Under the pieces are notes generated by a model, which was not told where the DNA came from, made no database searches, and was given only the letters and a program-made list of their open reading frames with translations. Shown here piece by piece: positions 46,546 through 46,911 of a DNA stretch of 64,000 bases. How positions within the stretch are numbered: the first letter of the stretch is position 1; every line of letters starts with the position of its first letter. This DNA comes from Escherichia coli (lineage in GTDB: Bacteria; Pseudomonadota; Gammaproteobacteria; Enterobacterales; Enterobacteriaceae), in NCBI RefSeq assembly GCF_003334355.1, contig NZ_QOWP01000004.1; one strand, 5' to 3'. The position numbers were made by a program, and so were the translations under genes.

Positions 46546-46679
46546 CAATATTTTCCTCCCGCGCTAAAGATCACATAATCTTAACAAGAATGTTAAAAAA
46601 TGCTGGACTCAGACAGTAGAGTGTGTGTTATGGTTGACTATAAAGTCAGCGAAGGAAATGCTTCTGGCTTTTAACAGAT

Positions 46680-46782
46680 AAAAAGAGACCGAACACGATT
46701 CCTGTATTCGGTCCAGGGAAATGGCTCTTGGGAGAGAGCCGTGCGCTAAAAGTTGGCATTAATGCAGGCTTAGTTGCCTTGC
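46680..46782 (-). ncRNA. sdsR: Small RNA SdsR (RyeB)
   Basis: Minus-strand sequence GCAAGGCAACUAAGCCUGCAUUAAUGCC...GUGUUCGGUCUCUUUUU recognised from memory as SdsR, ending in an intrinsic terminator; the 63-codon minus-strand ORF in the track here is most likely non-coding. Confidence 0.7.
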
Positions 46783-46870
46783 CCTTTAAGAATAGATGAC
46801 GACGCCAGGTTTTCCAGTTTGCGTGCAAAATGGTCAATAAAAAGCGCGGTGGTCATCAGCTTAAATGTTA

Positions 46871-46911
46871 AAAACCGCCCGTTCTGGTGAAAGAACTGAG
46901 GCGGTTTTTTT
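46871..46911 (+). terminator. Rho-independent terminator (plus strand, putative RyeA 3-prime end)
   Basis: aaaaccgcc...ggcggttttttt hairpin with T-run. Confidence 0.65.

Follow-up and report, generated by a model that had tools for sequence, protein, structure and literature searches.

The sdsR/ryeA locus of overlapping small RNAs between pphA and yebY in an Escherichia coli genome

Our comparison with K-12 and with Rfam identifies the intergenic stretch between pphA and yebY in the window (the whole 64,000-nucleotide stretch of Escherichia coli contig NZ_QOWP01000004.1 analyzed here) as the E. coli sdsR/ryeA locus. We put the probability at about 0.96 that this is the pair known from the species, with SdsR encoded on the minus strand under a sigma-S-type promoter and RyeA on the plus strand under sigma-70. 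No observation made here contradicts this reading. The locus is already known and well studied, and there is nothing new in the locus itself; in K-12 it has been annotated for two decades and has been dissected experimentally (Frohlich 2012, Frohlich 2016, Choi 2018, Choi 2019). The sequence identity, helices, terminators, promoter motifs, synteny and lack of coding signal are established here, and the expression timing, sigma dependence, mutual degradation, interference, read-through and toxicity are taken from the literature on K-12 and Salmonella. The value of the case is one of calibration: in a preliminary description made from the raw sequence, the small RNA (sRNA) pair was recognized, its ends were placed within 0 to 2 nt, and the open reading frame (ORF) overlapping it was rightly dismissed.

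Identity with the K-12 locus and its flanking genes

In an ungapped comparison, K-12 sdsR (b4433, 104 nt, minus strand) is an exact substring of the window at 46680-46783 on the minus strand, with zero differences, and K-12 ryeA (b4432, 272 nt, plus strand) maps without gaps to 46642-46913 on the plus strand with two single-nucleotide differences, at 46847 and 46862. Across the whole pphA-yebY interval the sole differences from K-12 are these two, both within the segment unique to the 3' part of RyeA, and one at 46601, a position 41 nt upstream of where RyeA starts that the inferred core promoter does not include. SdsR, the sdsR promoter and both terminators are free of differences, and 46602-46846 is identical to K-12. 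The 421-bp stretch at 46540-46960 is present in all of the complete E. coli genomes compared (5426/5426), at 100% identity in many of them. K-12 and the window agree in flanking genes, promoters and terminators, and there is no difference of substance between the two.

The Rfam search that the preliminary description had proposed places both families well above their gathering scores. SdsR_RyeB (RF00111) matches 46680-46779 on the minus strand over model positions 1-100 of 100 (114.4 bits against a gathering score of 38, E value of 1.5e-22), and SraC_RyeA (RF00101) matches 46676-46820 on the plus strand (175.1 bits against 37, E value of 2.5e-41). Weak matches in the neighborhood to rliE, mir-216, sR35, mir-223 and sR23 were dismissed as chance, with E values of 0.28 to 0.94 and scores far under the gathering thresholds. 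From 46782 the minus strand reads GCAAGGCAACTAAGCCTGCATTAATGCC and it ends with ...GGAATCGTGTTCGGTCTCTTTTT at 46680, letter for letter as had been quoted; together with the K-12 identity and the RF00111 match, this confirms that 46680-46782 on the minus strand is SdsR with an intrinsic terminator. The span of 46640-46911 that had been given for the pair corresponds to the 272-nt primary RyeA of Choi 2019, from the most upstream of its three starts to the longest 3' end (+270), and lies 2 nt further left than the ryeA feature of RefSeq.

The K-12 annotation and the ORF list agree that the pair lies between pphA and yebY. The upstream neighbor of sdsR is yebY (46941-47282, minus strand), so sdsR stands downstream of yebY on the same strand, the arrangement described for RF00111. 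A yebY homolog occupies the same position and strand in 94 of 105 species loci among the matches listed. On the other side, pphA (serine/threonine phosphatase 1; 45889-46545, minus strand; K-12 annotation and NF008516 at 440 bits) begins 134 nt downstream of the SdsR 3' end. Among the matches listed, just 11 of 95 species loci have a pphA homolog after sdsR, and the loci concerned belong to Escherichia, some Citrobacter, Atlantibacter, Kosakonia and Pseudenterobacter. This suggests that the coupling of sdsR and pphA by read-through, as found in K-12, is restricted to a few lineages. As to the start of pphA, the ORF list gives a TTG at 46548, one codon upstream of the K-12 ATG at 46545, and the NCBIfam model aligns over positions 1-218 of 218 with the ATG version.

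SdsR, its promoter and its conservation

SdsR (RyeB) is a 102-nt RNA at 46681-46782 on the minus strand, as delimited by K-12 identity, RF00111 and rapid amplification of cDNA ends (RACE), and it folds at -35.2 kcal/mol (z score of -3.8). In K-12 its transcription starts at the G corresponding to 46782, 1 nt downstream of the older annotation and the base with which the preliminary description also began, and its 3' ends map by 3' RACE to +100 to +102, or 46683-46681 (Choi 2019, PMC6610125). The RNA has the three stem-loops expected of RF00111, the last of which is a Rho-independent terminator whose helix shows covariation.

For comparison across species we retrieved at least 120 orthologous loci, one genome per species, with a 22-base SdsR core pattern. 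This search pattern inflates the identity of the core and of the middle helix, which were therefore given no weight. Indels of 1 nt throw the 5' hairpin out of register in MAFFT, and stem 1 was accordingly excluded from the count of base pairs and folded sequence by sequence.

Stem-loop 1 (46764-46782, SdsR nt 1-19) pairs GCA-A-GGC with GCC-TGC and carries seed 1 in its distal part (Frohlich 2016). Folding of the individual sequences shows that this hairpin is retained through compensatory changes in at least 60 distinct enterobacterial 5' regions, including those of Yersinia (GTA..TAC), Brenneria (ACA..TGT), Serratia (GGTT/AACC) and locus L049 (AAGACT/AGTCTT); Lonsdalea, Dickeya and others likewise keep it through compensatory changes. 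The single-stranded region that follows (46741-46763, about nt 20-42, as delimited by the alignment and Frohlich 2016) is nearly invariant in 85 aligned sequences, part of the segment being the search pattern itself. Within it RNase E cuts at nt 31 (46752), and seed 2, UAGCGCAC, is located there too, with C38 at 46745 (Frohlich 2016); RACE also detects SdsR 5' ends at +31 to +34 (Choi 2019, PMC6610125). Stem-loop 2 (46723-46740, GGCUCU/AGAGCC in the Rfam consensus structure) has a helix that is invariant in all loci and, being part of the search pattern, is uninformative on covariation.

The terminator found by the terminator scan (46680-46714) consists of an 11-bp stem at 46714-46686 followed by CUUUUU and is more stable than all of its shuffles. 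In 85 distinct sequences, 99.7% of the cells in this helix are paired and 4 of the 11 pairs have changed on both sides. None of 500 shuffles reaches the observed values for pairing and double changes, and when the register is slid, pairing falls to 20-46%.

The sdsR promoter (46789-46816, minus strand) was recognized by sequence reading, by its conservation and from Frohlich 2012, which is also the source of the sigma-S selectivity features that we looked for. It has a -35 element TGGAAA (46816-46811), a 16-bp spacer, a C at -13 (46795), a -10 element TATTCT (46794-46789) close to TAYRCT, and an A/T-rich discriminator. Conservation across genera extends to the motifs ctggaaaa and tCTATTCTTAa. 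In vitro, K-12 sdsR is transcribed by the sigma-S holoenzyme alone (Choi 2019, PMC6610125). A scan for sigma-70 and terminator consensus sequences returned no match at the sdsR promoter or the ryeA promoter and likewise missed the bulged plus-strand terminator. Its sole find was the SdsR terminator, and the other signals described here come from folding against shuffles, motif reading and published mapping.

Mean identities to E. coli over 114 loci among the matches listed separate the SdsR segments from the rest of the locus. The SdsR segments overall range from 0.83 to 0.99 (0.93 for the terminator and 0.83 for the 5' part), and the sdsR promoter stands at 0.76. Outside Escherichia, the ryeA promoter (0.44), the parts unique to RyeA at its 5' side (0.33) and 3' side (0.37), and the terminator at the far end of RyeA (0.49) are near background. 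SdsR is thus conserved and the parts unique to RyeA are not, which suggests that RyeA is a lineage-restricted addition; its biological importance is less assured than SdsR's. These comparative data independently reproduce the published view that sdsR, rather than sraC/ryeA, is the conserved element (Frohlich 2012) and under long-term selection.

RNAs that pass the RF00111 gathering score, at 62 to 87 bits, were also observed in at least seven genomes of Alteromonadales (six Shewanella and one Paraglaciecola). They lie at L030:9591-9694(+), L095:9565-9667(+), L104:1590-1691(-), L017:9643-9745(-) and L003:11011-11110(+), and also in L055 and L082. Homology begins at UAGCGCAC (seed 2) and runs through stem-loop 2 and the terminator, the latter with compensatory changes; it does not extend to the 5' third. 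In Shewanella, a sigma-S-type -10 element (C-TACACT or C-TATACT) is retained. We found no yebY near these homologs. The Shewanella benthica copy lies 79 nt downstream of rsmF, a gene that is also close to sdsR in E. coli. A literature search on SdsR and Shewanella returned no relevant paper.

RyeA and its relationship to SdsR

RyeA (SraC) extends over 46640-46911 on the plus strand according to K-12 mapping, RACE and RF00101. In K-12 it has three adjacent starts at 46640-46642, with the mature 5' end at 46642, and 3' ends by RACE at +261 to +270, or 46902-46911 (Choi 2019, PMC6610125). From the sequence and these mapped starts, TGtTATGGT at 46626-46634, which ends 7 nt before 46642, is the probable extended -10 element of its sigma-70 promoter. 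Transcription of ryeA in vitro is by the sigma-70 holoenzyme (K-12; Choi 2019, PMC6610125).

The strong plus-strand terminator that had been proposed at 46871-46911 is borne out by folding and by the published ends, with the refinement that it is bidirectional. The hairpin at 46870-46909 and the U run to 46911 fold at -20.0 kcal/mol (z score of -5.13; 0 of 200 shuffles as stable), and the RACE-mapped 3' ends of RyeA land in this U run. On the minus strand the same element (46870-46911; A5, GC-rich hairpin, U7) folds at -19.8 kcal/mol (z score of -6.7), and the yebY stop codon lies 30 nt upstream of it. From the equal fold and this position we infer that plus-strand RyeA and the minus-strand yobA-yebZ-yebY operon share this terminator.

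The plus strand thus carries a discrete unit that encloses sdsR and has a terminator of its own, a hairpin with U7 into which the RACE ends fall. By position, RyeA spans the whole of SdsR and its promoter and carries the full reverse complement of SdsR (46681-46782), as had been claimed from the sequence and as the K-12 ryeA mapping and the published ends confirm. In the terms of type VIII toxin-antitoxin systems, the positions make the antitoxin complementary to the toxin RNA.

How far Rfam speaks for RyeA is another matter. The RF00101 match is limited to the 145 nt opposite SdsR and its promoter, of which it is the mirror image, and the family also scores 47 to 65 bits opposite the SdsR homologs of Shewanella and Paraglaciecola, loci in which nothing specific to RyeA is shared. 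Because it mirrors SdsR and fires where the rest of RyeA is not conserved, RF00101 is not independent evidence for RyeA, and we rejected its matches in Alteromonadales as evidence of RyeA there. The evidence for RyeA in the window is its identity to K-12 over 46602-46846, the terminator and the published mapping.

This raises the alternative that only SdsR is discrete and functional, and that the plus-strand signal is its reverse complement, detected by an Rfam model that mirrors it, plus pervasive antisense transcription. Besides the behavior of RF00101 and the lack of conservation of the ryeA promoter and the parts unique to RyeA beyond Escherichia among the 114 loci, such a reading could appeal to the finding that SraC is dispensable for SdsR control (Frohlich 2012) and to the few genes altered by a ryeA promoter mutation (Choi 2019, PMC6610125). 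However, K-12 RyeA has mapped 5' ends, 3' ends in a U run and sigma-70-specific transcription in vitro, and the K-12 gene differs from the window by two nucleotides only; the plus-strand terminator is far more stable than chance; and in K-12 a mutation of the -10 element abolishes RyeA and advances the expression of SdsR and pphA (Choi 2019, PMC6610125). We therefore regard a locus with SdsR as its only functional RNA as very improbable and retain the reading of an sdsR/ryeA pair.

Published work describes how the two RNAs act. SdsR, an Hfq-binding RNA that builds up in stationary phase, undergoes RNase E cleavage at nt 31 and represses many mRNAs by base pairing (Frohlich 2016). Its targets include tolC, yhcB and mutS in E. 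coli and ompD, crp, stpA and others in Salmonella. The sdsR gene relies on sigma-S for its transcription, and a shortened SraC species accumulates in an RNase III-dependent manner (Frohlich 2012). In K-12, primer extension, RACE, in vitro transcription, promoter mutants, RNA-seq and reverse transcription-PCR of sdsR-pphA were brought to bear on the locus; each of the two RNAs promotes the degradation of the other, the duplex being a substrate of RNase III, transcription of ryeA interferes with the promoter of sdsR, and pphA is expressed mainly as a dicistronic sdsR-pphA read-through transcript (Choi 2019, PMC6610125). The preliminary description had the two RNAs act as mutual sponges. The mutual degradation upholds that idea, which is nevertheless incomplete, as transcriptional interference has also been reported.

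Applied to the window, these results suggest the following scheme. The sigma-S-type promoter at 46816-46789 would drive the 102-nt Hfq-binding SdsR (46782-46681) in stationary phase, and SdsR would repress mRNAs in trans through its two seeds, the second of which would be exposed by RNase E cleavage at nt 31. A sigma-70 promoter would start the RyeA RNA of about 270 nt at 46640-46642, and its transcription would cross sdsR and the sdsR promoter and stop at 46870-46911. RyeA may limit SdsR in two ways, including convergent transcription that would interfere with both initiation and elongation at sdsR. Part of the sdsR transcription probably passes its terminator and yields pphA mRNA.

According to Choi et al. 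2018, as cited elsewhere, overproduction of SdsR in K-12 arrests growth and RyeA relieves the arrest, which is why the pair is classed as type VIII, with an RNA toxin and an RNA antitoxin. It is one of the two founding, experimentally validated systems of this type, SdsR-RyeA and creTA, in both of which toxin and antitoxin are RNAs (TADB 3.0). The creTA system is CRISPR associated and its antitoxin acts through Cascade, whereas the antitoxin of SdsR is a fully complementary cis-antisense RNA for which duplex degradation and transcriptional interference have been published. A report on Campylobacter CJnc190/CJnc180 (PMC8687705) describes a similar logic, in which an RNA from the opposite strand antagonizes a trans-acting sRNA and RNase III acts on the duplex, although sequences and organisms are unrelated to those of SdsR/RyeA.

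The closest comparison outside E. coli is with SdsR/SraC of Salmonella. There, the segments of SdsR and of its sigma-S promoter share 94-100% identity with the window (locus L061), and the three stem-loops, the RNase E site and the two seeds are the same (Frohlich 2012, 2016). In contrast, the segments unique to RyeA are just 0.42-0.52 identical, the SraC promoter of Salmonella and Shigella lies about 35 bp further upstream (Frohlich 2012), and no pphA homolog was found downstream of sdsR at the Salmonella locus.

The overlapping open reading frame and the annotation of the locus

A 63-codon frame with a TTG start overlaps SdsR on the minus strand (46646-46837; ORF list). The preliminary description took it to be noncoding, and we agree: it is not a gene, and that the frame runs open across the sRNA is due to chance. 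The TTG is 55 nt upstream of where SdsR starts, a short way past a strong terminator, and neither it nor an internal AUG has a Shine-Dalgarno sequence in front of it. Anchored on the invariant core, the frame varies in length from 0 to 231 amino acids (aa), with a mode of 29, over at least 120 species loci. Escherichia is the only genus among the loci listed in which the long frame stays open, at 63 aa in E. coli, 54 aa in Escherichia sp. E1V33 and 158 aa in E. albertii. In most other genera listed (Salmonella, Citrobacter, Klebsiella, Enterobacter, Leclercia and others), ACTTAGCC replaces the E. coli ACTAAGCC in the loop of the 5' hairpin, which places an in-frame TAG there; in Salmonella this TAG closes the 63-codon frame. 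Several lineages also have 1-nt indels in the hairpin.

The 63-aa product has no match among NCBIfam models, and an exact look-up of five possible ORF products (four from the E. coli locus and one from a related Escherichia species) found none of them among about 15 billion predicted proteins. No coding sequence is annotated at the position of the ORF in K-12 or in a PGAP-annotated genome with identical sequence, and a literature search on SdsR with ribosome profiling or small proteins found no report of translation.

The internal AUG, at SdsR nt 24 (46759, minus strand), begins a 37-codon frame that passes out of SdsR without meeting a stop. Among the loci listed, its stop always falls past the terminator, at a distance that differs from species to species, so that SdsR itself would be a nonstop message. 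The first 27 residues from this AUG (MPTFSARLSPKSHFPGPNTGIVFGLFL) are nearly invariant across Enterobacterales, which is most simply a by-product of conservation at the RNA level.

Could the minus-strand ORF, at 63 codons or at 37 codons from the AUG, nonetheless be a real small-protein gene, so that the locus is coding or has a dual function and is translated from the operon or from sdsR-pphA read-through? The frame that stays open in two Escherichia species besides E. coli, the 27 nearly invariant residues and the published read-through transcript, which would include the stop codon, could be cited for it. Yet the constraints on the RNA, with helices kept by compensatory changes, account wholly for the conserved residues; the TTG lies past a strong terminator, with no Shine-Dalgarno sequence at either start; in most genera the frame is broken by the TAG or by indels; and family models, protein look-up and literature are silent. 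We hold such a gene to be extremely unlikely, and for the 63-codon frame the proposal is already largely refuted. Equally little credence is due to a narrower version, in which SdsR has a dual function and the 37-codon frame is translated on the read-through transcript into a small hydrophobic peptide: its C terminus would vary among species, it has no ribosome-binding site, and gene finders never call it. The reading of an sRNA pair with a chance frame across it accommodates these observations.

The preliminary description had further expected that ORF calling would misannotate the locus as a hypothetical protein, an expectation that failed. In the PGAP-annotated RefSeq record NZ_CP026399.1, positions 1507-1901 (locus L002) are 100% identical to window positions 46546-46940 and carry no feature between pphA and yebY, and the products are absent from the approximately 15 billion proteins. 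Between the two records compared, only that of K-12 has ryeA and sdsR annotated. The gap in annotation is therefore the omission of the sRNAs outside K-12, not a false protein, and routine RefSeq annotation of non-K-12 E. coli leaves out both RNAs.

Two other RNA elements were observed elsewhere in the window. The Rfam cspA thermoregulator family (RF01766) matches 30729-31189 on the minus strand at 135.7 bits against a gathering score of 78, and by K-12 coordinates this match is probably the 5' region of a cspA paralog, putatively cspC. The sroD family (RF00370), a known E. coli sRNA, matches 11595-11680 on the minus strand at 115.2 bits against a gathering score of 50.
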